Below the pieces are notes generated by a model that did no database searches, was not told the DNA's origin, and saw only the letters and a list, made by a program, of their open reading frames with translations. Shown in pieces: positions 18,379 to 43,898 of a stretch of 64,000 nt of DNA. How positions within the stretch are numbered: position 1 is the first letter of the stretch; the number at the start of each line of letters is the position of its first letter. A program made the position numbers and the translations under genes. This DNA is from Rotaria socialis (lineage: Eukaryota). The stretch is taken from NCBI GenBank assembly GCA_905331295.1, contig CAJNYD010000033.1:186001-250000 (forward strand), read 5' to 3'.

Positions 18379-20922
18379 TCAATTAGACGATGGACAAGAA
18401 CAACAAGGAGAAATAGGAAAAAATGCTGAGCCTGGGTTACTTATAGTGACATGTGGAATGCGATGTATTCGAATGTATTGATCAAGAAATAATCGGTCAT
18501 AACGTTGATGAAGGCCAATAGAATGAAAATTCTTTTTAGTCATCTGTTGATTATTATCGATATTTGACTGTGATAATTGGTTTAATAAGCGTGATAAACG
18601 ATTGCCAATGTTAATAAAAGAGTTCAAACTAAATAAAGAAAATAATTTATTGATTATGTCATTGAATAAAGAATACATTCTATTCTATTCGAGTATTTTT
18701 ACAATGATTTTACTTACGTTACGTTCTTTTGTAATCGATTACGATCATTAGGTGTTATTTTAACAATTAACCGTAAAATTGAATCGTTTGCATGAAAAAT
18801 AATTTCATTATCACAATCAATAAATACATCATAAATGTGTGTTTTGTCTTTAAAAATTATTTCTGTTGTGCAACCAATATAACTTTGTTCATTACTAAGC
18901 ATTGTTAAATCCGTAATATTAACAAAAAACAATGGATTAACAGATTGATTAATTATGTGTGTAAAATAAACTATGATGAAAGTCTTAGCTCGTTAAAGAT
19001 AGAAAAACAAAAGTATCTACCTGCATTGCACAAAGATCCAATTGGTGAACGCGAGTAAAGTAAAATACGTTTACCCAGAAGGATTAACCTTGTAAGTGGA
19101 AAGATAGATGGACCAAATTGTTGAATGAATTCCGCAAATAAATTGTCCTACAAGTAATCAATCAAACGTTGTCGAGTACAACTAATACGATCACTTAGCA
19201 TTGACTTTGTTCTTTGTTCGCAAAGAAACAAGTCGACTCAAGTTATAATCGATATTACGCTAATTTAACAAACAGAGAAATAATTAAAATTTATATTTTC
19301 TTCTCTAGAGAACTTTCTACTTAAGGACAAACATCTTCAAAACTAACATAATCTAATCTTATGTTTTTTCAATAAACAAATTTGTTTTTTCAAATGTAAG
19401 AAATATTACATATATCTATGGCATGACATATCAGTTGTAACACATGTTATGTCGATTATCTTCTAGTGCAATATATAAAACACATTTGATATGTATCGTA
19501 TCATAGAAATAGAAAACACTGATCTAATTTTAACAGATTCTACATGATATCTTACATAAATAGAAACTGGAACAGATGTTGGTTGACCATGTTGTAGAAG
19601 AAGTCGTTTTAAACGATCATAGTCGGCTGATGATTGATTAAGATAAGTTCTAAATATCAATAAGTTGATCATTTCTACTGTTAGACTATATGGACTAACC
19701 ACCTAGCTTCAGTTTGTAAAAATGCAAGATACGACTGTATATGTATCATAGATGAAGTTAAAATACCAACAGATTTAATACGCATACCGCGTTGTGATTG
19801 ATCGACTACTGACAAAGCTGATCCATCATCCTCATCTTTTACAGCATCAACACGTACTATACAAGCCAATCCATATTTACTTTCATGACGAAAATATCTA
19901 AACAAATACTATCATTATCAAAATATGTCAAACGAAATATTCTTTGAAATTTTTATTCTTTTTTATGTCTAAATACTAACGTCGATTCTCATGCGTTCGT
20001 TTTGATTCATCGAGTGAAACAAAATTATTTTTCAAATGTAACCTTTCTTAGAACTTAATTTGCCTAACATGAAGTAGACGCATTCAATGAACTTGAAATT
20101 TTATCTAATGTTATTTGATATTTTCAAGGTAATCATCATGATTCTTGTTCAAGTCAAATTTTCCGATATCATTTTATCTTAGAAATGAGTTCAAGGTCTA
20201 TTTATTTTTATTATACAGTTATTTGAAATTAAAAAAAAACTCCTAAATGAACTTTTTCTTAAACGAGTAGATAATAATTCAGAAAATACATATATTATTT
20301 TCCGTTATCATATAGACTTTCTCTTAAGCAAGGAAAAACATGGCTAATTTGATTTCTAATAGTATATGATTTTTGTAGAAGTTTATATAGAGAGGTAACT
20401 AGCGTTATCTTTTATGATTAAAACCATGGTAACCACGGATGTCCATATGGTTCATAGTGCTCGAACCTACCTAAACTGTATATGGGTCTATCTTTTATAT
20501 TTTATTGTAAAATATCTGTTATTAGTAAAAATAAATTTGCACATCAATGATTGTTGCTTTTCTAGATACTTAACCTTCATAGATATTATAAGTACAAGAT
20601 AATTGCGAACGACAAAAGAAACACAAATCGTTCTTACACAAAATCTTCATGAATATGATGGGATCCACTTGGTAGTGCTTTGTATTCTACACCATTTAAT
20701 GGCATTTGTTCTTTTTCTGGCATTTGAAATTCAATTGTATTACCTTGAATAGTTATATAGAATAGTAGATAAAAAGAAAACTTGAATTAGAGTTTTACCA
20801 TATGTAACGTCAAAAGTAACAACAAAAATTGCTTCAACGTTTGGTTGACTATCTTCTGATGTTATTAATTGCTCATCATCATCGTCACCATTCAATAATG
20901 GTACATCATCATCATCAGTCAT
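18379..20922 (-). CDS. DENND11: DENN domain protein 11 (LCHN/KIAA1147)-like, multi-exon
   Basis: AIFVVTFDVTYGNTIEFQ, GVEYKALPSGSHHIHEDFV-YFRH...YGLAC, QRGMRIKSVGIL, FGPSIFPLTRLILLGKRILLYS, PLFFVNITDL...SYIGCTTEIIFKDK; these match the LCHN/Avl9-like DENN family. Confidence 0.82.
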
Positions 20923-22181
20923 TTAGTTCTCGTGGTTATCTTCAACGAAATAAAAATGAATTTGATAGCACCTGTAAAAACACTTCTAGAATAGAAACAA
21001 ATGATTTTTAATTTTTCATTAATATTCTTTTATTTGTGATGCACGATAATAATATTATTGTATAAATTTTGATTTGCAAACTAAAAAAATAACATCAGGT
21101 AAGCACGAGACCATATTTTTACTGAAAATCAATTGATTAATCATTTAATTGTAGGTAAAAAGAACCAATGAAATACACCTTTACATTTTAACTAACGACA
21201 TCTCCAATGAATTTTTTTCATGCACTTCGATGAACTGCAATAATCAACTATTTTCTTAGTATTATCGTTCATTAACTGAAATCTTCCGTAAATGAATATT
21301 GAAATGTGTATGGTGAGGCTTTCATCTTTACATTAGTACTCAAGGACATGATACATCAATATCTTATCTATTCATATTACTGACATTGAATGATACAGAG
21401 TCCAAACTATCTAATAAGAATCTTTTAGCACGGCCAAGATTTGACTTAGGATTTACGAAGCACGCTTACAGTGAGCTGTGGAAGCTGGCAACAGTGTTTC
21501 AGAACATTCGATAACATCTACGATTATGCACATGAATAATATGGTGTTATTTTAATTCAACTCTCTTCGATGAACACGATAGAAGTACTACTGCATATGC
21601 ATATGAGTAGATATAATTCTTGTTATATTTACCCACAGATGTTATATAATCCTATTTCACTTGATATCGGTATGGAAGCGCCATAATAGTCTACAGCATA
21701 GAGTATTCACGTTATGCATATTGACTTCTTAAATGAAGGATAATTTATGAAGTAGTAAAATAATCGTAGCTTTAAACCAGTACCCACTCCAAAAGCTGAA
21801 AATTTCTGGTTGGTTTGATGTATTATCCTTTGGATATTCTATATAGGATATCACTGTATTCTAAAAAAAAGTAAATGAGAGTGAATAGTTACAAATATAG
21901 TACGAATGATGAGCGAAGGCAAGGGATAGTCGCAATTATATCATCAGTTAAGGTCTCAGGTGATATTTGGGAACTCAAATGCTACAGTCAAGTTACAGAA
22001 TATGATACTCCTCAGGAGAATGCATTGTAACTACTTATTGAGGAAAATATGGATAACGGGTGTAATGGAATTATAAGATCGCTCTGCTTTTGTACTCTTA
22101 GTGTTGTTTTTAATGAAACAATTTTATTGTAGGTATCAGCGAGCAAACTGCGTACACAAGAAACTAGCTGAATAATGTTAA

Positions 22182-23184
22182 TCATTCTTGAATAGTAGCT
22201 GCCCATTTTTCATAGTTTTCTTTTTGCCGTTCCATTTCTCGATTAGTTAATTCCCACACATTAATTTCACTTGTTCTCGCATATGGCACTGGTCCATATT
22301 CTGGTGTCAAAGTTATCCATTTCCTATTCTTCTGTTCGTTCCAAACCATTTCCCACCATTTTTGCATTTGCTCACTTTCTTCCTTTGATTCCCGAGGATC
22401 ATCCACTTGTGCATGCTGAGTTGAGCCGACACGCGCATGAATATGATCAACTCTAGATGCAAATAGACGAAAACGTTCGTCATCAGTAGGATGTTGTAAA
22501 AGACGTTCACACACGACCGGAAAGTGGGAATAGTCAGCAGTTAGACGAAGAGTTGGGAATCGATTGACCATATCAGCAGTAACGAACGGATTGTAGAGTG
22601 CACGACTTCGGTGGGTCTGAAATCAATCAAATTTTAAAAAAAGAAACAAAATTTTTATGTAGGAAAAAAATTTCACGGCAGATCGACTAATATTAAGTAA
22701 GTAAAGAATCTCATAATTTTATTTATAAGTCAGATATGAAGCTCACTTCGTGTGATGATGTGATTTGAGGAAATTTTGCTTGAATTTCTAATGCTTTTTC
22801 AAAATATTCTTCTTTCTGTTTAGTTGACCATGAATCTTGTCCTCCTTGAATATTCACGTGTATAGGTTTGAACTGTATGAGTTCGTTTAATTGTTTTTCT
22901 AGATTAGCCAAATGCTCATCAATGGATAAATCATGCCATACATCCGGTTCAGAAGGATAGAAACTCGTGACAACAGTACCGATTAATTCGAGTTTGTGAT
23001 CATGTAAAGCTTGTTGAAAAACGTTGCTATCATTGTTTGAAAGACGTGCAATATCGCTCAGTGATGCTTCAATACCTGTATAGCCCAGTCGATGAAGTTC
23101 AGCAAAAAGAACATTAATATCGGCCGAAAACTGAGCTTCAATGCCCCAAAGAACACGAAAGATTTTTAATTGAGGTGCAGGCAT
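22182..23184 (-). CDS. Xylose-isomerase-like TIM-barrel sugar-phosphate isomerase/epimerase, bacterial-type; 2 exons (23184-22747, 22616-22182), ~290 aa
   Basis: Motifs GYTGIE, HVNIQGGQDSW, HE/THRSRALYNP, LTADYSHF, HIHARVG, TPEYGPVPY; a single 130-nt GT-AG intron joins the two ORFs in frame. Confidence 0.8.
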
Positions 23185-24037
23185 TGTTTGTGGGTAAGAA
23201 ACAAATTGTAACAGTATTTTATTAATAGATCTGCTATCGAACTAGCAAACACGATAAGAAGAAAAAAGATTGTTATCTTCCAACATTTAACTCAGTTCTT
23301 GAAGATTTCTCTTTTATAAAGGACGTGCAGTATGATTATGCTCGTTGTTTCGAGGCCGAAAGTCAGATTTTACACAATGAAGGATGGATTTTATTAGCTT
23401 TCTAAGTAGCCAACCTCTGTTTTTGAATCATTAATACAAGGCGCGAGTTTTCTATTCGCCCACACTACGATCCTCAAAAGATTAGCATAAAAGTGCTAAA
23501 TCACTTCTGATAATTTCCTCATAAATCATGATGACTAAGATTTTTATCTTCAAATTTTCTTTAGTCTTACAATTCTATTAAGTGAGCACGAAGGTGCATG
23601 TAAGGTGAAAATATGTAGCCAAAGTGTAGTACAGAGACGGCTAATAACCGCACTTACACTCAATAGGAGGTTCTTATTCTACGAGATGTTGATATAGAAC
23701 TTTTGTTGGTTTAATTAAGTGGCTATTAAATCCTGAAAGACTTTATTGAGAGTGCTAGATGAACTCAATAGGATCAAATCGTGATGATCTCGTGTAATTG
23801 AAAAACCTGCAAAAATTCTTTTATATTTATTTTTCCGAAATACTCGACAATTTGCTTACAGTAACTGAGTATTAAAACAGTATCAAATTAACGTTATGAT
23901 GCAAATCAAATTATATGCACTCCATTTGCGGTTCATATTAAAGGTCATTAAAAGCGTCGGTTTTGTTAGTATACTTTATTTTAATTAAATTGGTAAAAAC
24001 GAAAGGAATGTTTTATTTTTATTCCATCTGTCCATAG

Positions 24038-27000
24038 TTAACCATTGTCCTCATCAGATTCGTAATTCTTGTCGTTCCATTTTGGCTCAAAGTCCTTGGG
24101 TAATGCTTCAATATTAGATGGATATAACTTTTCATCATAAGATTCTTCATCAACCATTTTCCTACGAGCATAGTGCGAAACAAGAACATGTCGCACAATC
24201 ATCCAAGCTCGACGCTGTTCAGTTGGTGGAATATCGTTGCTACAAGCGTTCCCTGTGGTAGCGAGTTCATTTAGGTTATTATACCAATCGGGATGGTATT
24301 GACTATAATATTTTTGCAGTGGAGAGACATATTCATCGTCACCAATATACATTCTAGATGTCATCCAATACTGGTAGCAAAGCTTGAGAACTGGTGTGTG
24401 CTTTTTGTAATATGTTCTTCCGAAAAATGCCTCTGCAATATGATGAGGAGTCCCATGAACTACCATGAGCTGTGGTTTTGGTGGATTACAACTGCAACTA
24501 GCAGGTGCACATTCACACTGGTGCCATGGCTTCACTAGCTCTTCCTCATGGGGCTCTGGTCGGCTACACTTTGCACCACAGCCAGGACATCGACTTTGAC
24601 AACCGAGTTGTCGTGATATTCTCATTCTACATCCATTGTAAGCGTTCTTTTTCACATCTCTTGTCAATGCCACCACACGATCAGGAATCTTATCGAAGCT
24701 GTCCAGAAGCGTTTTGAAGCCTTGTTTAAAATTCATAAGACTGTGAATTGGTAGCGATATGATTCCTTTGAATGTAAACATATTGCCAACATTGCTTCCT
24801 AATAAGCCCTTATCAAGTATACTTTTTTCGATCTCATCAGCAATTAAACGGGCATTATTAAGTTGGCTTTGTTGCGCAGTATCATTAACGATATTGAACA
24901 CATCTATAATAAATTGTTCAGCATCCCGCATATACATGTAAATAACAGCTTCAAATTTTGTATTTATCTCACGAAAACTTAGTTCACGAAAATAACGATT
25001 GATATCCAAAACATACTTTAAAATTTTTTCTCCGTTGCCTTGTTCAAAACTTTCTTGATAGGCTTGATTTTGAACGGCATCATGATTAATAAATTGACTC
25101 CTTCCAATCTCTTCGGTTATATCATGCAGGATTTTATCAAGTAATATACGACCAGTTTCGTTAAAAATTTCTTCGCTCATAATGGTGGCCATATTTTTGC
25201 CTTGTTCAAATGAATTGTGCATGTGATCAATTTGAGTTTTCAGATTCTCTCGCCATGTTGCCAAATCATTACGTGCCTTTTCTATATCTTTCTCGTGACG
25301 ATGTTGTTCAGTTTTGATGATTTCTTCGATTAATTTTCTAAGAGCAATAACAGCAACATCCAACAGAAAATGATGTGGTACCAAGTGCTTTCGCTCATTT
25401 ACGATTATCTCGTTATTATAGAAATTTTGAATGTAAGTCAGTGTATGTGAAATGATACACGGATCTGAAGAACGTTGAGCTCGTATCATCTGAGTTATAT
25501 CATCACGCAGTTGAGGAAAGCATCCTTCGACAATCTTTAATAAACGTTTTTTGTGTTTATTATTGTAATGTTTCTCATGAAACCAAGATTCTACTTTACA
25601 ATAAAATAACTCCCATATTCTTTCTTCGTTCTCTTTATTACCATTATTTCCGAAAATATTTACAAGACGGCGCAAGAAAGAAATATTTGAAGGTTGTTTA
25701 GGTTGTGTGTAGCTTATAACACATCGATAGATTTCTTCCAACTCTTGCGAACGTTTTTGAAACTGATTAACGTCTAATGTGTGCAGTAAATTATAAACGC
25801 TCTGTGTGGTTGCGTTTGCAGCTTTTATACTTAAGTCTGAATTGTAAAACTTGATAACTCTCAACTCGATTTGATCTGGTGCCTCCGATTCTGATAGAAT
25901 TCTCTGCGTACATCTTTCAAGCTCCTCTTGATAGACCTTATTTATTCGAACTTGTAATTGTTCCGTGTTCAAATTTATGTTTCTATCGAATTCTTCCTGG
26001 ACAGCGCCGATAAGTCGATGTTGTGCATTCGAAACTCGTACATCATGAATTCTTTTATGTAAGGATTCTTCGAATTCCGCTCGTAACAACCCTTGAATAT
26101 TTAAAATGGGTGGCTCAATCAACTTTGCCACCTTTTCTTTGATTTCTGGTGGAAAGCAGCTGCGTTGCGTTTTTGAATTATAATCATTAGATGCTTCTTC
26201 CATAATATTTCTATGAGTAGTCTGCATCGCTGCGTAGAACTGAGTAGAGAAATGAGTGATATCCAATTGTGAACAATTATTAGGCGTAATTTCTGATAAT
26301 ATTTTAGTGATATGCTGTCTACCTTGATTGTGTATAACTATGATACAGCTTTCTGTAATGCTCCGTGCAATTTCTCGTAGTTCATTCTTCATAGAAAGTT
26401 CATAAAGTGTTTTGCATGCTAGTAAATTAGGGCCTAGATTATCAATTGCATCCCAGTTGCTAACGATCTTCTGGTACAATTGTCGTATATCATGATAGAT
26501 TTGACTACCAGTCTCAAATAAACTCATCGAAATTATCTTTCGTAGTTCATTAATTTTCATAGGAAATGTACGGTTGCGCCAGGTTTGTTCGATCTCCAAA
26601 ATAGAATTGTAATCACTAGAAAATGCATTTGGTAATAAAATAATATTCCGTTCATTGATTTCGAATTCGTCGTCAATCGATGATTTCAGAAATTTACAAT
26701 CATTGTATAAGTTTTCTTTAAACTTAGCAAGTTGTTTAATGAATATATCCATCGCATTAGTATCTGATTGATCACGCAAGATAAATAAGAGTTTTGGCTT
26801 TAGAGGAGATCGAATTTGTAGTTTTGCATAGAAACTCATGCCAACTAGATGCTCCAAATTAGCACTTAATTCACCTTTGTGATTAACAAGTACCATATGT
26901 GAAGTCAGCATTGCCATCGATACCATTTGATTATCAAATATTGAGCCTGACTCTTCAAGTGACAAAAGACCTTCTGTATCGAATATGACGATTGGATGAG

Positions 27001-29825
27001 ACTGCCAACGTACGACACTGAGGTACATACCAATAGTACATCTACCTGCACTGACGCGAAAGTTGCAACCAAACGTAGCATTCATAAGTGAGGATTTAGC
27101 TGAAGATTGTTCTCCAATAACTGTCAGTACGATAGGAGATTTGTTGAACGACTGATGCATGTGATTGAGAGATAACTGTATCAATTTACTGTGACACCGT
27201 AGAGGGCGCCCACGCAGAATGTGAAACGAAAATCCTTTGTACATAAGGTCGACAAACGTTTTGGCTAGTAGTTCTGATAGATTGTTAGACACAAAAAGCT
27301 TAGGAAGGTGCTCATAGAGTGCAAAAATTTCATCGCAAAATAAACCGATTGTCAAATCAATATTTGATAATTGATTTTCAATTTTAATAATTCGATGTTC
27401 ACGTGCTTTGTAATCCTCTTTTGCCAAGATAGTTTGATTGAGTATGTTTTCAACTTCAGCTTCATTACCTTTGTTAACATGTAGTGCACATTGTTCTTCT
27501 AGATGCTTAATACGAGACATAACGATATAAGCACCCTCCTTTTCTGCGTTTAATTGACTAAACAACGGTTTTTCATACTGAGCTCGCCATAATTCTAGAT
27601 ATTTTTCTGCTATCAATAGTTCGATGTATGGATGTTTTACAAGCAGATCAATAAAGAACATGGTATATTGAGGGATTTGATCGATAGATTGATATTGCTT
27701 TCGAATTTCCTCTAGCTGAACATTCAGATCAGCAGATGACTGCTCCCAAAGTTGAGATAATTCTTTTTCACATTTAAGTTTGGCACTTTCCAAATAGGTA
27801 ATAGGCGTAACAAGTTTTAGGTTATCCGTTTTATCGGACAATTTCTTAAATAGAGATTCAAGTGTTTGATGTATTTCAAACATATATAATGATGGTGGCG
27901 GAGCATTACCAGTCGATTTTATTTTTATGAAATGTGCTTGAATCATAAAAATTGATTCAAAATTCGATGGGGCACGTAAGACTGCAAGTGTGGAGCGGAA
28001 AGTTTCCATGAGACTATTTCGTAACAGTTTTAGTCGTCTTTCTTCATTAAATTTTGACTCTCTAATCGATTTACTTAATATAGGCGCTCTGATATAAAAC
28101 GTATTCAACCAATTTTCTTTGGCAAAAGCTTGCTGAAATGTTTCACAGGACGAGTTAGACTTTACGTCATATTTTGAATCAAAAACTACAACGATCGTTG
28201 GTTTCATCCTGGTTTCAGTCGAATAATTCATTGTTTTGAGCAGAAAATCTCGATTTTGTAAATCCGCTTCAGTTACAAAGAGAATCTGCATGGAAGAATA
28301 TTGCTGAATCGCAGTAATTAAATCTTCATTTATTGTAGTCATTGTGCCATGAATATCAAACACAATGTATGAATCAGTTTTTGTGAATGAAGCAAACATA
28401 GCATCAATACAGCTTGATCTAAATTGTAGATTTCCATCTGTATTCAACATCTCGCTTCGAATATTTTCAAATAAATATGGCAGAATACTTGTTTTACCAA
28501 GTCCAATAGATGTCGGACTGCCGAAGTACAATATAATGCGATCACTGGAAAAGCAAAAAGTTTCGGCAAGTGTGTTGAAATTAATTTTAAATTCTAATCC
28601 ATTCGTACCAAGTGTGTAATAAGCCAGTGGAATAGGTAAACCATTTTTACGAATCATATTTCCTAGAAATCTTTGACTATCAGAAGATAAAGATTCTATG
28701 GTACAAATAATTAATATATATTTAGTAATTTGTTCGATAATATCTAGAAATGCATCCATGGAACTATTCGTTCGGACTGCATTCAGACAGGAGGAGAGTG
28801 CATCCATAATATCAAATAGACTATGATAACGCTTCAAACTGTCAAGAATGTAAGATTTTAAAGAGCAAGAATGAGTAATATTGTGAAAAATAATTTCGCT
28901 AGTAATTGCTTCATCAATAATAATATTCAAATCAGAATCGAATCCATCTGATTCTGGTTTTATGCACATATAGCCAAATATTTTCTTGAAAATATCCAAA
29001 GCTCCGGCATTCAATGCATTCTGAATAACTTGGATATGTGTACTAGTCCATGGGTGGAGTAGTTCAGCGATATCAAGTCGAGTAACTTTGTGCTCGTGAA
29101 GTTCCCATTTACATTGAGCTTTTATGCCAGTACGAACTAGTCAAAATAGAATAATATTTTCTATGTTTCAAGTACTTCAATATCTATTACCTGATGAATA
29201 CATCTCGTTGTCCATAAGTTCAGAAAAAGAACTAGACGCGCTCAGATCAACCTAATTAATCACACAAGAAGACTATAATACATGACTCGATTTGCCCCTA
29301 CTTTCTGCAGGTATGTTTTAGAATTTTCAGGCAGATTGATCAGTGTCGATTGAGAAGTAATCAGTTTATTTTCTCTACTTATAAAGAAAGATATCAATTA
29401 AAAAATTTTTTGCTGATGCTAACCGTAGCTTTTTTCGTTCTTTGTTAAATAATAGTCGATCCTTGATGTTAGGTATAAGTTCTTTGATAGTTGTTTCATC
29501 GAAATCTTCGTCCATCAACACACCACCATCTATGGTGTTCTCTGATAAAACCGATACCGCCTCAATGATTATTAGTGTAAAACTTTTCGCAACAGAATAC
29601 TACCTTCAAACGCGGAAGCATACTGTTTCAGACCACACGAGCTTAACCATGTGGCAACATCCGACATTGACCAATTCACTGGATTGTGATTCACTAAATC
29701 TTAATCAAAATATAATTTACTAGAAATAAGGTATACTTTGAAAAATTGGATGTACCACTTATAGAAGAATTTTGTGTGATTGGCTTATCGTTCAGCGACG
29801 GTGTTACATTCATAAATTCATCCAT
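24038..29825 (-). CDS. SAM domain + interferon-induced very large GTPase (VLIG/GVIN1/URGCP)-like protein, ~1,840 aa, 6 exons
   Basis: The ~5.1-kb terminal exon (29136-24038) carries VIGEQSSAKSSLMNATFGCNFRVSAGRCTIG and FDTEGL (VLIG-type G motifs), LLFILRDQ, and a C-terminal GCQSRCPGCGAKC..H Cys/His cluster. Five small upstream exons splice in frame and encode PVNWSMSDVATWLSSCGLKQYASAFEENTIDGGVLMDEDFDETTIKELIPNIKDRLLF (SAM). Confidence 0.85.
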
Positions 29826-30935
29826 GATAAAATGATATTTCGCTACAATCTTTTTTTTTTATCTAAGATAGACAATGTGGACACAAATCTGTCGATTTCT
29901 TGATAATAATTATTCTGTGGCATAGTTTTCTGACAAACGTTTTATGAGCATTCTTTTTTAGATTTTTCTTCGCTCAACCAGTTTTATAAAACTTTTTCTG
30001 TCACTTTAAAATTATGTAAAAATGATTTTAAAATGTTGAAAAGAAATTTACAAAACTAAAACAATCAATAAATAATACAAGATAAGTGCGATAAGTGTTC
30101 TAAAGCTGCCCAATCAGACATAAATTTTCGAGTACTCAACAAAAAGAAGCATATCGTAAAATTAGTGCAGAGTGCCCTGGTAGAAATAGAGTCCTGCGGG
30201 AACGACTTTTCCCCGTATTTTCCCGTAAAGACTTTTGCACGCGAGCATGGGAAAAGGGAACAGCATTATAAATTATCATTCCCGAAAGTTTTTCTATCAG
30301 ATCTATATGAATTGAAATGCATACATATCTACATTGTGGACATATTATATAATCAAGACCTTCATCTTTATAATAAACTTTTGAACAGTCTGTCCAAACT
30401 TCACTTTTAGCATTTGCTGGTTTTGCAAACGAGATTGATGGATCATTGAGTAGCTACCTAGTTCGACTTCGAATATAAATGCAAGAAAAACCACTTTCAT
30501 GTTTTCCCACAACCCCGGCCGAAGATTTCCTTTTTATAAATTATGTCAAGAATCAAGGGGAAAATCGCTTTTTAAGAAATCTTCGGCTGATCCTATCTCC
30601 TAGCTACAAAATACTACGGACCTAAAATTATTTTTCACATACGTCTCAGCAACACATTCCTTCGATGCTACTCGCAGCTTGCTGTGGGAGAGCTTTCGCA
30701 CTGAAACTTTTACGGAAATCGATTTAGGCACTACATATTGAAGATTTCAGATAACTGCATTTCCTTCCCGGTTTTCTTCTCTCCAATATCTAAATATGCA
30801 TCAAACGCTTTTAAAACGACTCATGAAAAATCCTTGAAGACGAAATTTGCAGCACCTAGTTTTAAACGAGAACGCTGAGAATTTGAGACACTGTCTTCGA
30901 AAAACGGAAACACGTGAGATTACTCCAAGTGTGAC

Positions 30936-31422
30936 CAGTAGTGTCACATATCCAGGACTTTGGAGATGCTACCACATCTCCCGTGGGAGATGCCGCATTT
31001 CGCGCGAAAGATGCGCCCAAATCGACTGATCCGACATCGGATCCTCAGTGCCGGAATCCTATGAACTTCCGATGACATACAACGGTTTTTCCTTGGAGTT
31101 CATAGGAATCCGACACTGAGGATCCGACATCGATTCCTCGACCCGGAATCCAACGATAATTCTGTAAGATCTGACAGGATCCGATAAAATCCTATTGGAT
31201 TCCAGTCGGATCGGATGGGTTACGATAGGTGCCTACTGTCGGATTGCCCGACCTGGGTGGGTGTGAGTGTGTGGGATGCGCATCTCTAAAGGAGATCTTA
31301 CATCTCCAGTGGTGAATGACCGCATCTCCCGATTGTGGATATCACGTTTCCAGCGGGAGACGCGGCATCTCCTGTGGGAGATGTGGTAGCATTTCCAAAA
31401 TCTTGGATATGTGACACCACTC
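30936..31422. mobile_element. hAT-like MITE carrying a nested palindromic element (~31016-31257)
   Basis: Imperfect TIRs CAGTAGTGTCACATATCCAGGA...CATCTCCC / GGGAGATG...TCTTGGATATGTGACACCACTC; near-TSD AGTGTGAC (30928-30935) / AGTGTGGC (31423-31430). The inner element has ends CCCAAATCGACTGATCCGACA / TGTCGGATTGCCCGACCTGGG. Confidence 0.75.
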
Positions 31423-31621
31423 AGTGTGGCTGGTAGGAAAGGCGGACAACGTGGGTACATACAAACCCAACATACCAAGTGTGGGTGCCACGAAAGGTGG
31501 TCATACGAGTCTACACACAAACACAACACAGCAAGTGTGGGTGCCAGAAAAGGCATACAAGTGTGGCACACAAACTAACCCACACCGGAATTGTTTAACA
31601 TATAAAAAGGAAATCTAAATC

Positions 31622-31622
31622 N
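31622..31622. other. Single ambiguous base (N), possible contig join
   Basis: Sequence reads cntgcc at 31621-31626, within the repeat-rich interval. Confidence 0.9.
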
Positions 31623-32161
31623 TGCCAATTTGAAGATCTTTATCTTTGGCTTTGGGATGGTTTTTAAATGGGCTTGATTTTTTTGCATTTATTTTCGAAT
31701 TGTGAATAGTTATTCAGATGTCGATTTATATTCGAAGTCGTACTAGGCATCTCACGAAGCACTTACCTGTTTGTAGTTTTATTAGTTTTCGTAGATTTGC
31801 AATTATGGACCAAATATTCGCTGTACTTTGAGGGAGCAGTTAAGGTTCTACTCAAGTCACTGCTTCTTTATGATGAATCTAATTTATGTGAGACTGAATA
31901 GAAAAGCTAACAAAAAATACTAGGATAATGTTGGCGATATTCTTATTTGTCATATTCAAAGGAAACTCTCAGACTGTTAGAATATCTTTCAAATAGTTTG
32001 CTCGATTATTATTTCTTATAAGAAAATCTGACTAGTATACTTACTCTGGCTACATCTGCATGGGTATTTTATTTATAACAAGTGGGTATTTTTTCTTTTA
32101 TTGACTCAAGGTAGCTAGCATATTTTTTCTCCACGAGAACAGAATGCAGATGACTGACGTC

Positions 32162-33286
32162 CAGGGTTGCCACCTCTTCCGCTTTTTGCGGAAAGTTTCC
32201 GCTTTTTTGCTCTTTTTCCGCTCTTTTTCCGCTCTTCCGCTCTTCCGCTTTTTTTCCGCTCTTCCGCTTTTTTTCCGCTTTTTTTCCGCTTTTTCATATA
32301 AAAGACTTTCGTTATTTAATTGAAAACTTAACCATGCAAGAAACTAGATAACGTGATGCTAGACGAAAATTTCTTGGAAAATAATTTTCTAACGTATAAT
32401 TCTATACCATTCTTGAAAAATTTTCGCTTCACATGATAGATTTTCCAATAAATTTTTCTAGTGAAACACATTTCGTGCTCATTTTGGCCTCCACTATGAA
32501 ATACATTCACCTGGATTTGAAATGCCAGTGAAGAAAAGAAAATTTCTTTCAAGTTCTTATTCATTTGTTAATATAATAGATGAAAGCATAGCCACATTCG
32601 ACAGCTGAATGTAAAGAACAACATTATCCTCTTAGACTTGTAAAAAGCGAGCTTTATTTTTTGGATTGTACGTTTTTCGGGCCAATGTTTTAATTTGTGC
32701 CAAAAAGGAGTCGCATTCGGCGGCTATATGTGGAAAGGAATATATATTTTTTGTTCTATTACTCTGAAAAATGAGTTTCAGTTTTTTCGATTGCATCTTT
32801 TCGCATAAACTTTTAAAGTGCTGTGCCAAAAAAGAGCCGCCTTCGGTGGTATATTCTCTGCGAAAAATAGTGAACTGACAGTCGCAATACGGCCATTTCA
32901 CTATCACAAAACGAACATTTTTTGGGACGATACAAACATTTTCTCTGTATGGCACTTTTAGAAAAGATGAGTAGAAAAAGAATTGACAGAAAAAATATAT
33001 TTATTTTTGGACCGGAAATCGTTTATCTTTTCTTCTTGGAGTTTCAGGCCAGGTACGCCCTGATATTTTTTATGAGTTGTCTATTATGTTGTGGAACTGC
33101 GAACAAAGTAGTACTATGAGCAATAAAACAAGGTTACTTAAACTCTTGGAAATGTGAAAGGTCAGCAAAAAGCAGCTTTCCGTTTTTTTTCCGTTTTTTC
33201 TATTTTTGTTTCCGCTATTTTCCGTTATTTCCCGCTCTTTTTGATCAAACTTTCCGCTTTTCTGACCTGATGAGGTGGCAACCCTG
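32162..33286. mobile_element. Non-autonomous hAT-like DNA transposon, 1,125 bp
   Basis: Perfect TIRs CAGGGTTGCCACCTC / GAGGTGGCAACCCTG; perfect 8-bp TSD CTGACGTC (32154-32161, 33287-33294); subterminal TTCCGC repeats at both ends; no transposase ORF. Confidence 0.92.
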
Positions 33287-33944
33287 CTGACGTCAATCAC
33301 TTCAAGTTTCAATAAGAATATAGAATGTATATATGGTTTCTACTTTTTGTTAAAGAAGACAGAAAAAAACATCCAGTTTGAAAGACGAATTGACAAACTT
33401 CAGTTTTATAACAATAAATCAAAATATAATTTCAAGAGGGATATCTCTGTCAGAAGTCTTTAGACAATATATAGCTACACTCTATCAATATTTCATTTTT
33501 TTAAAAATATGTTCATTGATAAAAGAATTATTTAAGTACAGTCATTCTCTGTATGTAGATATAATTATTTACTATATAATCAAATCATATTTCAGTATCA
33601 AATAGTTAAAAGATATTAATAAACATCGATGAACACGATCGTATCTGAAGATTTCACGAAGTCTTTTTCTTCTTTTATCCATGAATGAATCGAATAAAAA
33701 AAGCGCTATGCTGACCATCACAATGTGTTTACTGGCAAACAACCACCAAAAAAGATACTTCTAAACACTCGACGCCTTATTGTGACATAGGTGATAGTGA
33801 ATGAGTGTGCTTGAGCAATAAATAATGTAATTGTGGTAGATATTACATTTATCTGAAAAACTTATTGATCAATAAGACCGAAATCAAATAATAATAACAA
33901 TATAATCTCAAAGTGATGCCAGTCTTCTTTGTCTCTATCCGCAC

Positions 33945-34511
33945 CAGGGTGGCCAGATCTTCTGAAAAATAGGGGAAAATTCTGAATTTTGAACATGTTT
34001 CTGATTTTTTCTGAATTTGGAATATATTGAGATCGCTGCTTTGTCACTGAAATTAGGTACGATTATAACCCATTACTATAATAAATCAATACTGTTTCAT
34101 CGATTTTCTCTATTAATCATCTTTATATTCCTCGTTCGACTTCCAAAAGATACGAAATATGAATAACAATACCGAGATGATGGGATTTAACATTTTTTTT
34201 CTCGTTGAAATTCTTAATCTACGCATAATGTATTTGATTTAGTTTTGCTCGTTTTTGTGAACGAGTTTTAAATTTAAAACGAAGCTCAACATTAAGTATC
34301 TTTTATTGATGTCTTTGTATTAGCTAAGCGATATATTCATTATATTGCCTTTCGTTTTATTGAAATATCTTTGAAATAAAATTCCAGTCAATGAACAGAA
34401 ACGCAGCAGAACTTTGGATGCCAGTATTTTAGCGAAAGATGTACGAATTTGCCAAAAACTGCCATTTTCAGATTAATTTCTGATTTTTCAATTTTTGATT
34501 TGGCCACCCTG
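33945..34511. mobile_element. Non-autonomous hAT-like element, 567 bp
   Basis: TIRs CAGGGTGGCCAGATC / GATTTGGCCACCCTG; perfect 8-bp TSD ATCCGCAC (33937-33944, 34512-34519). Confidence 0.92.
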
Positions 34512-34828: not shown

Positions 34829-37450
34829 TCAATTTATGCCTTCAGAATTATCAATAGTCATGGCAGTTGCTCCCTCAGTAACAGTTTCAACAGTAACTGG
34901 TTGTGATGAATCTTTCGAATTAGTATTCTGAAAGTAGAATAAAAACAAATATTAATAAAGATCGCATATCATCAAATGGTCAGGTTTCAGTTCGTCTTAC
35001 TTTTTTTTCTTTACTAGTTTTTTTCTTTGCTTCTTTCGCTTCTTTAGCCAATTGTTGTTCTAATTTTCGACGCTCTTTTTCTTCTTGTTTGCTTTTTTCA
35101 ACAAGCAATGCTTGTTCACGTTCGCGTCTTAGCACTTCAGGATCGCAAAACTTGATTGTCGCTTTATTCGTGCCAGCTATTGAATAGAGGAAAACAATAG
35201 AAATATAATTTTGAAAGAAAATTTCATTTCATACTTCTATCCTCGAGTCGCACGCCTAATTCCGGTAAAACTTCGTTCCTTACATGATCACATAATGCCA
35301 GAATTTCTTTGTTTTTAACTTCAATGGCTTGTGTACGCACAGCATCTCGAAATAGTGCAAATTGTTCTACATATGGCATAGCAATATCTTCGACATTAAC
35401 AGCGGATGCTTGTTGTTCAGTTGATCGAGTAAATCCGATGTCGTCGGTTGATGGTACAGAAGAATTCAAACCAAAAATATCAATTAAACCTGTTATATAA
35501 GCAGCAATATTGCGTAACAGGAGGCGATTAACAGTTGCATTTGTGCGGTTCATATAAATATTTGTTGTTGTTATTAATTGACGTATATTTTCCATTACAG
35601 TTGGTGTATCGATGGAATCACATAAAGCCAAATGTACTTGTTTTTTAATTGCCGAAAAACGTTCATTTAATTGTAAATCATATTCATCATATTTGGTATA
35701 AGCGCTCGAATGATTTAATTGTTTCATTGAACGTAGGTGTGTTTTGATATTCAAGAAAAATTCACTAAGTAATTTTTCATAACTTAAAGTTTTTTCCATG
35801 CCAGAATCACTGTAGTCTAATGTTGATGACCACGAATGTAATAGAAATAATAAACGTATTTGTCTTGATGTATATTTTTCGAGTGCTTGTTGAATGGTAA
35901 CGAAATTCTTTAATGATTTCGACATTTTACATCCGGATATTGTTAAATGACCACTATGTAGAAAATAATTTACCCATGAATCACTATCATAGAAAGCTTC
36001 AGATTGAGCAATTTCATTGTCATGATGAGGAAATTTCAAGTCGATACCACCTGTATGAATATCAAATTGTGCACCTAAAAGATAAAAACAAGTACGAGTC
36101 TATACTATTTTTTTTTCTCATAAAAAAATCTCTTACCTAAGGTAGTACTAGCCATAACACTACATTCAATGTGCCATCCTGGTCGACCAAATCCCCATGG
36201 TGATTGCCAAACTGGTTCACCTATTTTACTTTTTTTCCATAAAACGAAATCGCATTCATTCTTCTTTTCTTTGCTCGTATTTGAAGCTGTTGTTAATGCT
36301 CCTTCTCCTTCAGTTAATGCATCAATATCTCCCATGCGGTCAGGTTCTAATTTTGCATATGCATGTTGTTTATGAAATTTAATTGTATCAAAATAAACCG
36401 ATGAATTCGATTCATACGCATAACCGTTTTCAATTATCTTCTGAATAAATGTTATTATCTCAGGTACATATTCACTTACACGTGTTAAAATATCTGGAGG
36501 TAAAATATTTAAGCGTGACATATCCGAATGAAATTCTGATTCATAATGACGAGCTAATTCAAGAAAAACTTCATTGTCCAATGGATTTGTTGAATGAGAA
36601 TAGCTAAAATCCAAATACGATGAAAGTATATCATGGCAATCAGCATACAATATCTATTTAGAACAACAATGAAAAGTTCGATTTAATTAAAGCTTTTGCA
36701 CTTTATTTACTTTTCTTTTAGCTTCTACATCAGTTACAGCAGCAATATTTTGAAGTGAATTCTCTACGGTAGATATTTGTTTATCATACATAGCTTGTTT
36801 GTCTTTGTCTGTTTCACGTGACCGTACATCTTTGACATGCTAATAAAAGAATAGAAATTAGGATAGATTCATTTCATTTGAAAATTCTATATTCTACTTT
36901 AAGTGCGAGCTGACAATCTTCGAGTACTTTTTCAATTGGAATTGTACTATCATCTTTATATTTCTTAATAAGATATCTTTCACGAGCTCGTTTAATGATC
37001 TTTAAATATAAAAATGAGCATATGGTTTTTTAAACACTAGAAAATTTACTTTATCGTCAATATCAGTTATGTTCATACAATACAAAATATCATAACCAAA
37101 ATAATCAGCCATAACACGTCGAAGTATATCAAATGAAATGTACGATCTGAAAATAGAAAAGGTAGATAAAATAAATAAATCAATCTCATTCGATTACCGA
37201 GCATGACCCATGTGAGATGTGTCATATACAGTTGGTCCACAACTATACCATCGTATTTCATTACCATTTATCGGTACGAAAAGTTCCTAAAAAGAAAACA
37301 AAAAAAATAATTTAATAAAATAGTACACATTATGATTACCTTCTTTTTGGTAAAGCTGTTATAAAGATGAAGTTGTGTTTCTGCTGCTGCTGCTTCAGGA
37401 CGTTTCCATGATGAAGATGATGATGATTTTTGTTGATGTGTTGAGCACAT
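34829..37450 (-). CDS. CARS1: Cysteinyl-tRNA synthetase, cytoplasmic type, multi-exon
   Basis: [23 protein letters not shown] (HIGH motif), [62 protein letters not shown] (KMSKS), [19 protein letters not shown]. Confidence 0.95.
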
Positions 37451-38083: not shown

Positions 38084-39840
38084 TTATCGTAAAAATTCAT
38101 TTCTTCGAAACGATGGTGCAAATCTTTTCGTTGCTGCATTGTTTATATCTTTCTCTGTAAAACTATAATTTTTTTGATCCAATAATTCGTGAAATACTTC
38201 CAATTGACATCGAGTAAATTCATAACTACGATACCAATTTCCTGAACGTTCCAATTTTTCACCATTTTTATCAAATGTTGTTGGTGGTGGACATCCATAA
38301 TCATCAAATTTAGCTTGATACTTTATTGTTGGATCCTGTCGTGTTTTATGTATACGTTCACATACAAGACATTCAAATTGATGAATAAAATTGCCGCGAA
38401 CACGATCATTATGTATACCCCATTTACGTTCAGACATTGTTCGTGCCAAGAGTGTATCATTTGAAATGATTTGATACAGTTTAAAATGACGATAGGAATC
38501 ATACATAGTATCGTTGACATTTAATTCATGTATAAAACGAGCTAACAGTTCAGGTGTCGTAAAATCAAGCATTGATATTGCTGAATGATTATCAGGAAGA
38601 AAATCCTATTTTGAAAAATAGACAAATACAATAGATTGTGATAAGAGATGTTTCTATCTACTTGAAATTGATCTGATCCATAGACTATTGGTACAGTACC
38701 AACTTTTAATGGACGCCAGAATTTTTCAGTTATATAATCAGTACATATCGCATTTTCAAAGGCCAATGTAAATTTATATTTACTAACAAGTTTTAATATT
38801 TCATCGTGTTCCATAGTTTCAACTGGATTTCTTAAACTACAAGACAAGACGAAGGATGTTTAATATAAAAAGAAAACATTTTTATTCAATATTCTATATG
38901 TACATACTTCTCTGGTAAATCTTTATTATGTAAACAACCTCCATAGGAATCAACTTGAATATATTTCATTAATTCTTTAACATATAAATCCCGATCCGAT
39001 GGTGTACTACAATCCGATTGGATATAGATGATTGGTGCTAAATTTTCAGTCGTTTGTAATTGTGTTTTTTCTTTAACATCAATTAGATATGTTTGATCTA
39101 ATAAATCATCAATGGATGCTAACCACTGAGTTGTTAAAGGTAGATCGGAGTGACGTTTAAATGTTGCTGTATGATTAAACATATTCATTATAGATTCAAA
39201 TGAAAATGCATAATTATTTTTTGGTGATTCTTCATGAATCAATGACCATTGTTCATGGTCATGACGTGGCAACGGTAAATCATATAAACGAAAACTAGTA
39301 CCATAGAAAAGAAATGCAGAAAATTGTTTATTATCACGATATTTTCGTATATTGGATATAAAACATCGTGCTTGATTATTGTTATTACATCGTGTATACG
39401 AGCCTGTGTCATATGTAAATGGTGTCCACCAGACAAGAATAGGTACACTTATATTTGCTGCTGAAAAATATTCGTCTTCTTTGTCTTTAACATCTATTAA
39501 AAATAATTATAACTGAAAAAAAACAATTTATCATGTTGAAAAAGATTTACAATCAGTTAAAATAGATTTATCAAGTCGACCACGAGTTTCTGTAATATAA
39601 ACTGTACCAATAGGTTCCCCATCGTCATCAATATATCGCTTAAGAGAGTGAAAGTATAATGCGGCAAACTTATTCATTCTATGCAAAACTTACCAAATGA
39701 TAGAAGAAAAAATAGATTAAAATTAATAATAGAACCAATAAGATAATATTAAAACTATAATTTATAGAAATAAAACTTATGACAATAGACTAATTAATAG
39801 GACAATAACGAAAACAATACCAACGAACTTGAAATTTCAT
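38084..39840 (-). CDS. Alpha-(1,3)-fucosyltransferase 10/11-like (GT10), type II membrane protein, multi-exon
   Basis: Spliced N-terminus MKFQVRCFNIILLVLLLILIYFFFYHL (TM anchor); WSLIHEESPKNN, FNHTATFKRHSDLPLT, YIQSDCSTPSDRD.YV.ELM, YKFTLAFENAICTDYITEKFWRPL (GT10 motif). Confidence 0.88.
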
Positions 39841-41108: not shown

Positions 41109-41606
41109 TTATGAATATGAATAGTTATAGGTTTGTGTTGGTTGTTGCTGTTGTATTGAATAATTCAATGAGCTATCTGTATTCATCATCCATGGTATTG
41201 GTTGAATAGATAAAGTATCAGCTCGTTTAGCTCGAAGACGAGCTTGTCGTCGTCGAAAATCCCCACGAATAAATGCATCGAGTGCAGCTGGATGTATACC
41301 CCAATAGTAACCACGACCATTTTCAGATTTTTGTTGTCGAATAAAGCATTCATTTAGTGATAAATTATGTCTGATAGAATTTCTCCATGCTTTACTTTGT
41401 AATGTTCCATAATAGGGATATTCATTTAAAATCCATTCGTATATGTCGACAAGTAACATTTGATAATTCGACGAAGATAGTATAGCACGAGCAATAAGTG
41501 CAACATAAGATTCTTGAGGTTTAGTTAATGATTTAACTGTTTTATGAGAACAGAAATCTTGACTTGATGGACTTGGACTAAAATAACCGCTGTCTTGTGG
41601 ATTCAT
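41109..41606 (-). CDS. Forkhead-box transcription factor, FoxQ2-like, single coding exon
   Basis: KPQESYVALIARAILSS...WRNSIRHNLSLNECF...NGRGYYWGIHPA...GDFRRR; the IHPA/GDFRRR ending is typical of FoxQ2. Confidence 0.85.
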   Translation of the reverse strand: MNPQDSGYFSPSPSSQDFCSHKTVKSLTKPQESYVALIARAILSSSNYQMLLVDIYEWILNEYPYYGTLQSKAWRNSIRHNLSLNECFIRQQKSENGRGYYWGIHPAALDAFIRGDFRRRQARLRAKRADTLSIQPIPWMMNTDSSLNYSIQQQQPTQTYNYSYS

Positions 41607-41939
41607 TACTCTATGAAAAGAAAACGTTTGAAATAATGTGTGAATCGATATCTTCTTATTTTACCTTGAAATAATAATAATAAAAATGTATTGTATTTCA
41701 CTCTTTTTAATCGTTCATATATAGATTCTCTCTTTCTCTCTTCTGGGATGAATGATGATGATGAATTGTACAAAATTGATTAATGATATCGCTCGATAGG
41801 TAACAGTTTGTATAAGAATTTATGTTGTTCTCGCTTATTACAAATATGAATTGTCGGTAGGGGGTAAGGTGTTATCGACATGCTGATCAATGATCAGCTC
41901 ATATATGATCACTTCCAAGCTGCCGTGTGATTTTTTCTT

Positions 41940-43146: not shown

Positions 43147-43898
43147 TTTAAAGCAATCAATGGTTGTGCTTTCTTTTCAAATCATTAAACATTGTATTTT
43201 CTTTTCTTTTGAACTAAAGATTGCAGTGGATTGACAGTGTTTTAATTAAAAATCTAATAGTTTAAATTATTCAATCAGAGATGAATTTATTTTGATAACA
43301 TTGCGTAAGATGCTCTTTTCATTTACAAGGCCAAAAATAAGTTACATCATACTAAAGGTCTTATCTTTTTTTCTTTGTATTCTAATAGTACGCTAAAAGG
43401 GACTTCAGTGAAAGTAACATATTGTTGTTAATATCAACCGGATGCTTCAATGAATTTAGATCAAAGTAATATAATAGAAAAAGTGTCCTATATAGAAAGA
43501 TTAGCATGGTGCTCTCTCTTCAAGATTGATTTTATATCAATTACTTAAGCTCGTTTTCATGATTTTTAGTGATTCATGTAATAGCTTTCAACATACAATG
43601 AGACTTAGAATCACTATCGAAACCTAACTTTTTTAGTCGCAATTTTAAGATAAGAACAAAAAAGCTTTACGCTTATTCGAGGTGTGCGAAGTTTAAAAAT
43701 ATGACAATGAGCCGATATCAATAATTACATTTCAACCAATTGAAATAAATGTAAAGCGCGCCAAATGTTTAGTAGATTCCTACAATACAATAAGATATTT
43801 ATTTTAAGGAAACTTATCTGTTTGTTGACGCAGGTGATGTTCTTTGCTATTCCAATGCATATAAAGACAAAAATTTTGTATAAAAAACTATTATTAAA

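Follow-up and report, generated by a model that had tools for sequence, protein, structure and literature searches.

Gene model and the predicted joining of the SAM exons

We analysed a window of 64,000 nucleotides from the bdelloid rotifer Rotaria socialis (NCBI GenBank assembly GCA_905331295.1, contig CAJNYD010000033.1, positions 186,001 to 250,000 of the forward strand; coordinates below count from the first letter of the window), and in particular a predicted minus-strand gene at 29825-24038 for a giant GTPase that would begin with a SAM domain. The window consists of AT-rich animal DNA with short introns. The predicted gene comprises six exons separated by five GT-AG introns of 49-62 nt (in order 56, 62, 49, 50, and 54 nt; phases 1, 1, 2, 0, and 1), and its predicted spliced product is a protein of 1,838 aa with one stop. 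Letter for letter, this product is the same as a public R. socialis model (P0386); the gene is thus already automatically annotated in public databases, and P0386, possibly built on the same DNA, lends the gene model no independent support.

All six exons lie on the minus strand. Exon 1 (29756-29825) supplies the ATG and a 23-aa leader and is 78% identical to R. magnacalcarata models; exons 2 (29604-29699) and 3 (29424-29541) encode the first and second halves of the SAM domain, respectively; exons 4 (29302-29374) and 5 (29191-29251) encode a linker, with a Met inside exon 5 serving as the start in some public models. The end of intron 3 has tandem acceptors 3 nt apart (29375-29380), and the public models contain either of them: the upstream acceptor, which would start exon 4 at 29377, adds one residue, giving proteins of 1,838 or 1,839 aa. 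Exon 6 (24038-29136) is 5,099 nt long and holds the entire giant-GTPase core together with the stop codon, which upholds the original prediction of a VLIG-type core in a single exon, the family profile PF25683 scoring above its cut-off. However, this part had been given as 1,658 aa, whereas exon 6 amounts to ∼1,699 codons, with its first ATG ∼56 codons in and preceded by sequence that is conserved in relatives.

A profile check of the spliced protein bore out the predicted SAM domain, with SAM_1 (PF00536) at 29.3 bits (cut-off 23) and SAM_2 (PF07647) at 30.9 bits (cut-off 20.5). Exon 2 by itself reaches 26.8 and 25.8 bits, respectively, against the same Pfam cut-offs. While the five small exons do join the large open reading frame (ORF) in our model, the SAM domain (∼aa 30-95) is encoded by exons 2 and 3 only, and not by all five as first proposed. 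In R. magnacalcarata the SAM domain is 95% identical, while the stalk and the first domain of the core reach 83-84%. When the SAM sequence was used for a word-based search, only 2 proteins of similar length were returned.

We infer from comparative sequence that the SAM exons are spliced to the GTPase exon. The original prediction had leaned on the exons joining in frame; that chain holds, but it is no evidence by itself, as the ATG can be connected to the large ORF by 584 stop-free GT-AG chains with introns of 45-70 nt, and we rejected in-frame joining as an argument for splicing. The weight of the splice model instead comes from homology with one metagenome locus (L001), the only one recovered from 86 candidate stretches, which is 52-55% identical to the window gene. 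In L001, (i) both SAM introns occupy the same codon position and phase, with the exon 2 donor and the donor after exon 3 retained; (ii) exon 3 aligns over 118 nt without gaps, with 13, 6, and 21 mismatches at codon positions 1, 2, and 3; (iii) the large exon starts at the same phase-1 acceptor; and (iv) the SAM exons lie on the same strand, 0.7-0.8 kb upstream of the large exon, as they do in the window. No synteny was found between the L001 flanks and the window.

Alternatively, the SAM exons could make up a small gene of their own or occur in a minor isoform, with the main transcript starting the GTPase at the exon 5 Met. Among the public models are some that begin at exon 5, leave out exons 3-5, or yield short proteins with nothing but the SAM (P0388, P0392, P0404, and P0230); exons 4 and 5 are poorly kept outside Rotaria (7-25% identity), and the L001 linker exons could not be fixed uniquely. 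Set against this, exons 4 and 5 are 86% identical in R. magnacalcarata, fused SAM-GTPase models are present in six species, and the exon 3 donor, the exon 6 acceptor, and the strand and spacing of the SAM exons are shared between the two genomes, so that we regard a separate SAM transcript as very improbable. Two possible RNA runs yielded short exon 6 pieces only, with no joints, and weigh neither way on splicing.

The GTPase core and its place in the VLIG/GVIN/URGCP family

The first 950 residues of the large ORF were modelled with AlphaFold2 from 54 sequences (pLDDT 86, pTM 0.86), and the C-terminal 820 residues were modelled separately (pLDDT 84.5). From N to C terminus, the models comprise an alpha/beta domain, a first G domain (LG1), a long helical hairpin, a second G domain (LG2), a helical stalk, and a Cys/His module. 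G-domain folds are matched by model residues 197-411 as well as 631-906, which makes for a tandem of G domains joined by a helical linker. The core begins with the alpha/beta domain (aa 140-334; 28553-29136, minus strand, as are all of the following), which was delimited from the model and whose profile finds 51 of the 125 other members of the subfamily and none of 31 GVIN1-type proteins. LG1 (27908-28552) carries a Walker A motif of the form G-x7-GK[TS] at 28522-28487 and DxHG at 28357-28346; the G, K, D, and H of these motifs are invariant in all 54 sequences, and the modelled domain matches Arl13B (Z 10.9, rmsd 4.2, 188 residues aligned).

The modelled hairpin between the G domains (27359-27628) leads into LG2 (26423-27250), which PF25683 and the fold match assign to the GBP/atlastin/Sey1 class. 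Its motifs are G1 GEQSSAKS (27115-27092), the G2 Thr (27037), G3 DTEG (26980-26969), and G4 RD (26776-26771), and GEQSSAKS, RCT, DTEG, and RDQ are nearly invariant across the 54 sequences. The LG2 fold is that of the Sey1/SMG9/GBP/atlastin class (Foldseek; Z 17-20), with Sey1p as the best match (Z 20.4, rmsd 3.0, 239 residues aligned), followed by GBP2 (Z 19.0) and SMG9 (Z 19-20). The modelled stalk is all-helical (∼aa 1046-1630; 24665-26422) and is the most polymorphic part of the protein. It is followed by the Cys/His module (24284-24601), in which C1652, C1656, C1659, H1700, H1705, and C1726 are invariant in 60 of 60 sequences; these conserved residues make the module a likely zinc binder. 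Its CxxxCPxC motif also occurs in lamprey and frog relatives, and the module is common to GVIN1-type proteins. PF26772 was not among the precomputed matches of P0002, and the C-terminal half gave no Foldseek match at E 0.001. No transmembrane segment was predicted (highest 19-residue hydropathy, 1.53), and there is no C-terminal CaaX box, the protein ending in SDEDNG.

With PF25683 (URGCP_GTPase) scoring 75.6-75.9 bits against a cut-off of 55, the sequence marks the protein as a member of the broad VLIG/GVIN/URGCP giant GTPase family, in which GVIN1-type proteins score 290-640 bits. An Atlas search agrees with this family call; NCBIfam assigned 0 families to the protein, and PF02263 (GBP) gave no match. 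The original prediction of a VLIG/GVIN identity therefore stands at the level of the broad family, but not as a GVIN1 orthologue. PF25496, for which all 14 GVIN1-type proteins scanned score 177-378 bits, gave no match at E 0.1 or 0.05, and a branch of 1.5 substitutions/site separates the protein from 10 GVIN1/URGCP-type sequences (SH-aLRT 100 with 71 sequences; FastTree 1.0 with 208). These trees use the second G domain of proteins with a G1 match (208 of 222 candidates). The missing PF25496 and the long separating branch place the protein outside the GVIN1/URGCP subfamily and, judged by these sequence comparisons, in a separate one, which we call AKS-type after its P-loop GEQSSAKS.

Besides the rotifer proteins, the AKS-type subfamily includes named proteins from Corticium, Oscarella, several dinoflagellates, and Perkinsus. 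The P-loop AKS is present in 101 of 119 new matches of the subfamily search, and the LG1 profile matches 75 of 125. The nearest relatives of the bdelloid clade are four environmental proteins (SH-aLRT 99.8), while deeper branches reach only 55.9; horizontal transfer is one possible origin of the clade.

Profile comparison gave no support to the idea that vertebrate GVIN1 itself starts with a SAM-like domain (probability <1%). An Atlas search listed SAM clusters only at ranks 3-5 (scores 0.82-0.85), which are leads only. The N termini of four long GVIN1-type proteins (P0072, P0073, P0074, and P0089) have weak SAM-like features, and these proteins also contain, at ∼aa 300-350, a motif that we take to resemble the MACPF signature.

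Bdelloid paralogues, their N-terminal modules, and sequence variation

Sixty sequences form one bdelloid clade (FastTree 0.999), about half of them being taken as bdelloid from tree position alone; a smaller tree recovers the clade with 25 of 25 sequences (SH-aLRT 99.7). Among the 100 matches listed, at least eight clusters are labelled A. steineri and at least five R. sordida. On this sequence evidence, the subfamily is expanded in bdelloids and its N-terminal modules are exchanged among paralogues, and this exchange, which lay beyond the view of the original prediction, is the more interesting point. The module survey covered 28 proteins, 26 of them from the bdelloid clade. A SAM domain was found in P0002, P0009, P0013, P0027, and P0031, and half a SAM in P0003; LIM plus SAM in P0030 and P0040; a caspase-like domain with SAM in P0033 and alone in P0052; and PDZ in P0054, P0056, P0057, and P0059. 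The caspase-like domains of P0033 and P0052, both checked whole, keep the GHG and DCCR motifs. Like the SAM fusion, these other fusions exist as gene models and carry the same uncertainty.

The SAM-bearing members fall into one subclade (39 leaves, FastTree 0.89; 17 leaves, SH-aLRT 96.5), whose smallest clade, of 16 leaves, has a support of only 34.8. Because this subclade spans Rotaria, Adineta, and Didymodactylos, the fusion is old, and a recent exon shuffle does not fit a SAM domain that is split over two exons and common to these three genera. Across 236 VLIG-motif proteins examined, the SAM profile matches 30, all labelled bdelloid, in a sample that includes only 31 GVIN1-type proteins and DNA-level gene calls that miss spliced exons. 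Furthermore, a second and very distant VLIG of D. carnosus (P0331/P0372; 25% identity to the core, long branch) bears a related SAM, and A. ricciae has the LIM-SAM cassette on a WD40 protein that is unrelated to the family; together, these two cases support module shuffling.

A 3,593-aa R. sordida model (P0421) joins a caspase-VLIG to a SAM-VLIG. Annotation has probably merged two tandem paralogues here, in which case both types would be genomic neighbours. Two non-bdelloid members of the subfamily (P0118 and P0125) have weak CARD-like matches, one of them with a B-box, and judging by these sequences, module swapping may extend beyond rotifers.

Sequence variation was examined in 9 R. socialis and 8 R. 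magnacalcarata sequences, in which isolates are mixed and paralogues or homeologues may be included. In this sample, 78 of 585 stalk sites are polymorphic, compared with 13 of 506 sites in the SAM, LG1, and LG2 domains (Fisher p 2e-11), a roughly fivefold higher level of polymorphism in the stalk than in the SAM and G domains. Eleven sites vary in both Rotaria species, where region-matched shuffles lead one to expect 4.5-4.9 (p 0.003-0.005); no residue pair is shared between the two species as a trans-species polymorphism. Moreover, two patches distinguish two haplotypes in DNA runs from which the window may derive; 12 of 17 codon differences are non-synonymous (neutral expectation, 0.79), including 7 of 8 in the helical hairpin. 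As far as sequence can tell, this pattern is compatible with an arms race and likewise with relaxed constraint.

The surroundings of the gene contain several further features. Nested inverted repeats at 30452-31752, 30937-31421, and 32162-33286 (arms of 29, 69, and 18 nt) begin ∼630 nt upstream of the GTPase start codon and look like non-autonomous DNA transposons; the single N of the window lies at 31622, and an Rfam scan of 20000-34000 gave 0 matches. The next gene downstream of the GTPase (22182-23241, minus strand) has a weak xylose-isomerase-like TIM-barrel match (E 0.044). Upstream lie pieces of a cysteine-tRNA ligase in long, intron-poor ORFs (35224-36653, minus strand), exons of a GT10 fucosyltransferase (38084-39506, minus strand), and a forkhead-domain gene (41109-41660, minus strand). 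One long plus-strand ORF (43884-46376) combines an OvoA/EgtB-like sulfoxide synthase (DinB_2 and FGE-sulfatase) with an EgtD-like histidine methyltransferase, with all NCBIfam scores below cut-off, and may encode an ergothioneine or ovothiol enzyme that was acquired horizontally.

Proposed role and comparison with known systems

We propose that the protein is a soluble, GVIN1-like scaffold of cell-autonomous defence, in which the SAM domain would be an exchangeable module that couples the core to partners; from the sequences and structural models, we put the probability of this reading at roughly 0.5. In its favour are a domain order like that of human GVIN1, the two modelled G-domain folds, the expansion of the bdelloid family with its swapped modules, and the concentration of polymorphism in the stalk. 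GTP binding would make the G domains dimerise, as they do in GBP/atlastin proteins and as modelled for GVIN1. The dimers would then assemble into a coat or polymer on a surface that is foreign or damaged, with the variable stalk and hairpin facing the target or a pathogen inhibitor. The N-terminal modules would thereby be clustered, and the SAM domain could recruit SAM-bearing partners, including the caspase-SAM paralogues, whose proteases might be activated by proximity. Nucleotide activity, assembly, target, SAM partners, and the link to infection are all predicted here from sequence and models. The original prediction had the SAM domain nucleate assembly, which is possible; since paralogues carry PDZ or a protease domain instead, a coupling role is likelier than a requirement for assembly.

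Several observations weigh against a GVIN1-like defence scaffold. Of the originally predicted defence role, its plausibility is the part that stands, any inducibility or link of a bdelloid member to infection being putative. The protein is far from GVIN1, with 25-33% identity over little more than LG2, and dinoflagellates and Perkinsus have members of the subfamily as well. The LG2 P-loop has an Ala instead of the usual Gly in 52 of 54 sequences, and activity is therefore not assured. A whole SAM domain is present in 6 of 8 near-full R. socialis models and in only 3 of 8 R. magnacalcarata models, and models of the same locus disagree. Finally, the 12 of 17 non-synonymous codon differences would fit relaxed selection as well as diversifying selection, and the polymorphism counts mix isolates and may take in paralogues or homeologues.

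Other readings of the same architecture are conceivable. The proteins could form an NLR-like immune sensor family of bdelloids on a giant-GTPase core, in which variable stalks would detect pathogens, assembly driven by GTP would bring the heads together, and contacts between SAM domains would connect sensor paralogues such as the window protein to the caspase-SAM paralogues. This would be a GTPase-based analogue of an inflammasome in an animal without interferon, which to our knowledge rotifers lack; we consider this tentative and on balance unlikely. Also unlikely is a housekeeping or stress GTPase of the Sey1/atlastin kind that remodels membranes or organelles, for example in repair after desiccation, the N-terminal modules only setting its location. 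It would account for Sey1p being the best structural match of LG2 (Z 20.4), for a weak Pfam match to RHD3_GTPase (PF05879), and for the age of a subfamily that is present in protists; yet the RHD3_GTPase score of 25.4 bits is below the cut-off of 42.4, the protein lacks a transmembrane hairpin, and family expansion, protease modules, and a variable stalk would be unusual for housekeeping fusogens.

A non-immune, nucleotide-regulated signalling scaffold is also conceivable, with the two G domains paired internally like SMG8-SMG9 and with SAM, PDZ, or LIM as its connection to partners in development or the cytoskeleton. SMG9 is as good a match to LG2 as GBP2 (Z 19-20), the LG1 motifs are retained, and SAM, PDZ, and LIM are generic signalling modules. 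This scaffold would not explain why the stalk is variable, why some sites vary in both species, or why caspase-like modules occur, and we rate it as slightly less probable than the remodelling GTPase. The GVIN1-like defence scaffold thus remains the reading that we prefer.

Among immune GTPases, the GVIN-type giants are the family that is least understood. A function for human GVIN1 was first reported in a 2025 preprint (bioRxiv 10.1101/2025.03.24.645074). Fusions of SAM, PDZ, LIM, or caspase-like domains to a related core would be a natural hint at the role of GVIN1 co-factors, and they offer candidate immune genes for bdelloids, whose asexual defence against fungal pathogens is an open question and for which infection RNA-seq from two Adineta species is public. 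Unless these genes respond to infection, they would be an ordinary domain-fusion curiosity. As for novelty, within coverage that leaves out subscription papers and part of the supplements, we found no publication on SAM-VLIG proteins, rotifer VLIGs, or the AKS-type subfamily, although the fusion itself is already present in NCBI/UniRef gene models of six bdelloid species. The supplements of PMC11258130 other than files 9, 11, and 16 gave no matches, the main expression table, possibly relevant to induction, lying outside this coverage. As read from its sequences, a rotifer family with different front modules suggests an innate-defence scaffold that is absent from the literature found.

NLR/STAND and SAMD9-type sensors combine an assembling nucleotide-binding core with swapped N-terminal signalling or protease modules. 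The rotifer proteins resemble them in this logic only; their core is a GBP/Sey1-class GTPase and not a STAND ATPase, and we claim no homology. GBP1/GBP2, atlastin, Sey1/RHD3, RNF112, and SMG9 share the LG2 fold (Foldseek; Z 14-20) but have one G domain per chain, whereas the rotifer protein has two. In addition, the rotifer protein lacks the transmembrane hairpin of Sey1/atlastin fusogens and the CaaX box of prenylated GBPs, and also the P-loop arginine of GBP1/atlastin. The AKS-type VLIGs of homoscleromorph sponges, dinoflagellates, and Perkinsus belong to the same subfamily as the rotifer protein; no SAM domain was found in them, and many are gene calls made at the DNA level, in which N-terminal exons joined by splicing would be missed.

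A core in one very large exon is usual for GVIN genes. GVIN1, VLIG-1, and URGCP (PF25683, PF25496, and PF26772) are like the rotifer protein in size, in the single-exon core, in two G domains with a helical linker, in the GxQSxxKS, T, DxEG, and RD motifs, and in the Cys/His tail. In contrast, the rotifer protein has an N-terminal SAM domain of Pfam grade, forms a separate clade, and gives no PF25496 match; its LG2 P-loop reads AKS where GVIN1-type proteins have GKS, and its LG1 carries GK[TS] and DxHG, whereas the GVIN1-type LG1 has SKS and NL[RH]G[DN], each in 8 of 8 checked. Human GVIN1, as described in the preprint, consists of an N-terminal domain, an LG domain, a helical linker, a second LG domain, and a domain at the C terminus, and coats cytosolic bacteria (bioRxiv 10.1101/2025.03.24.645074); the modelled domain order of the rotifer protein matches this arrangement.

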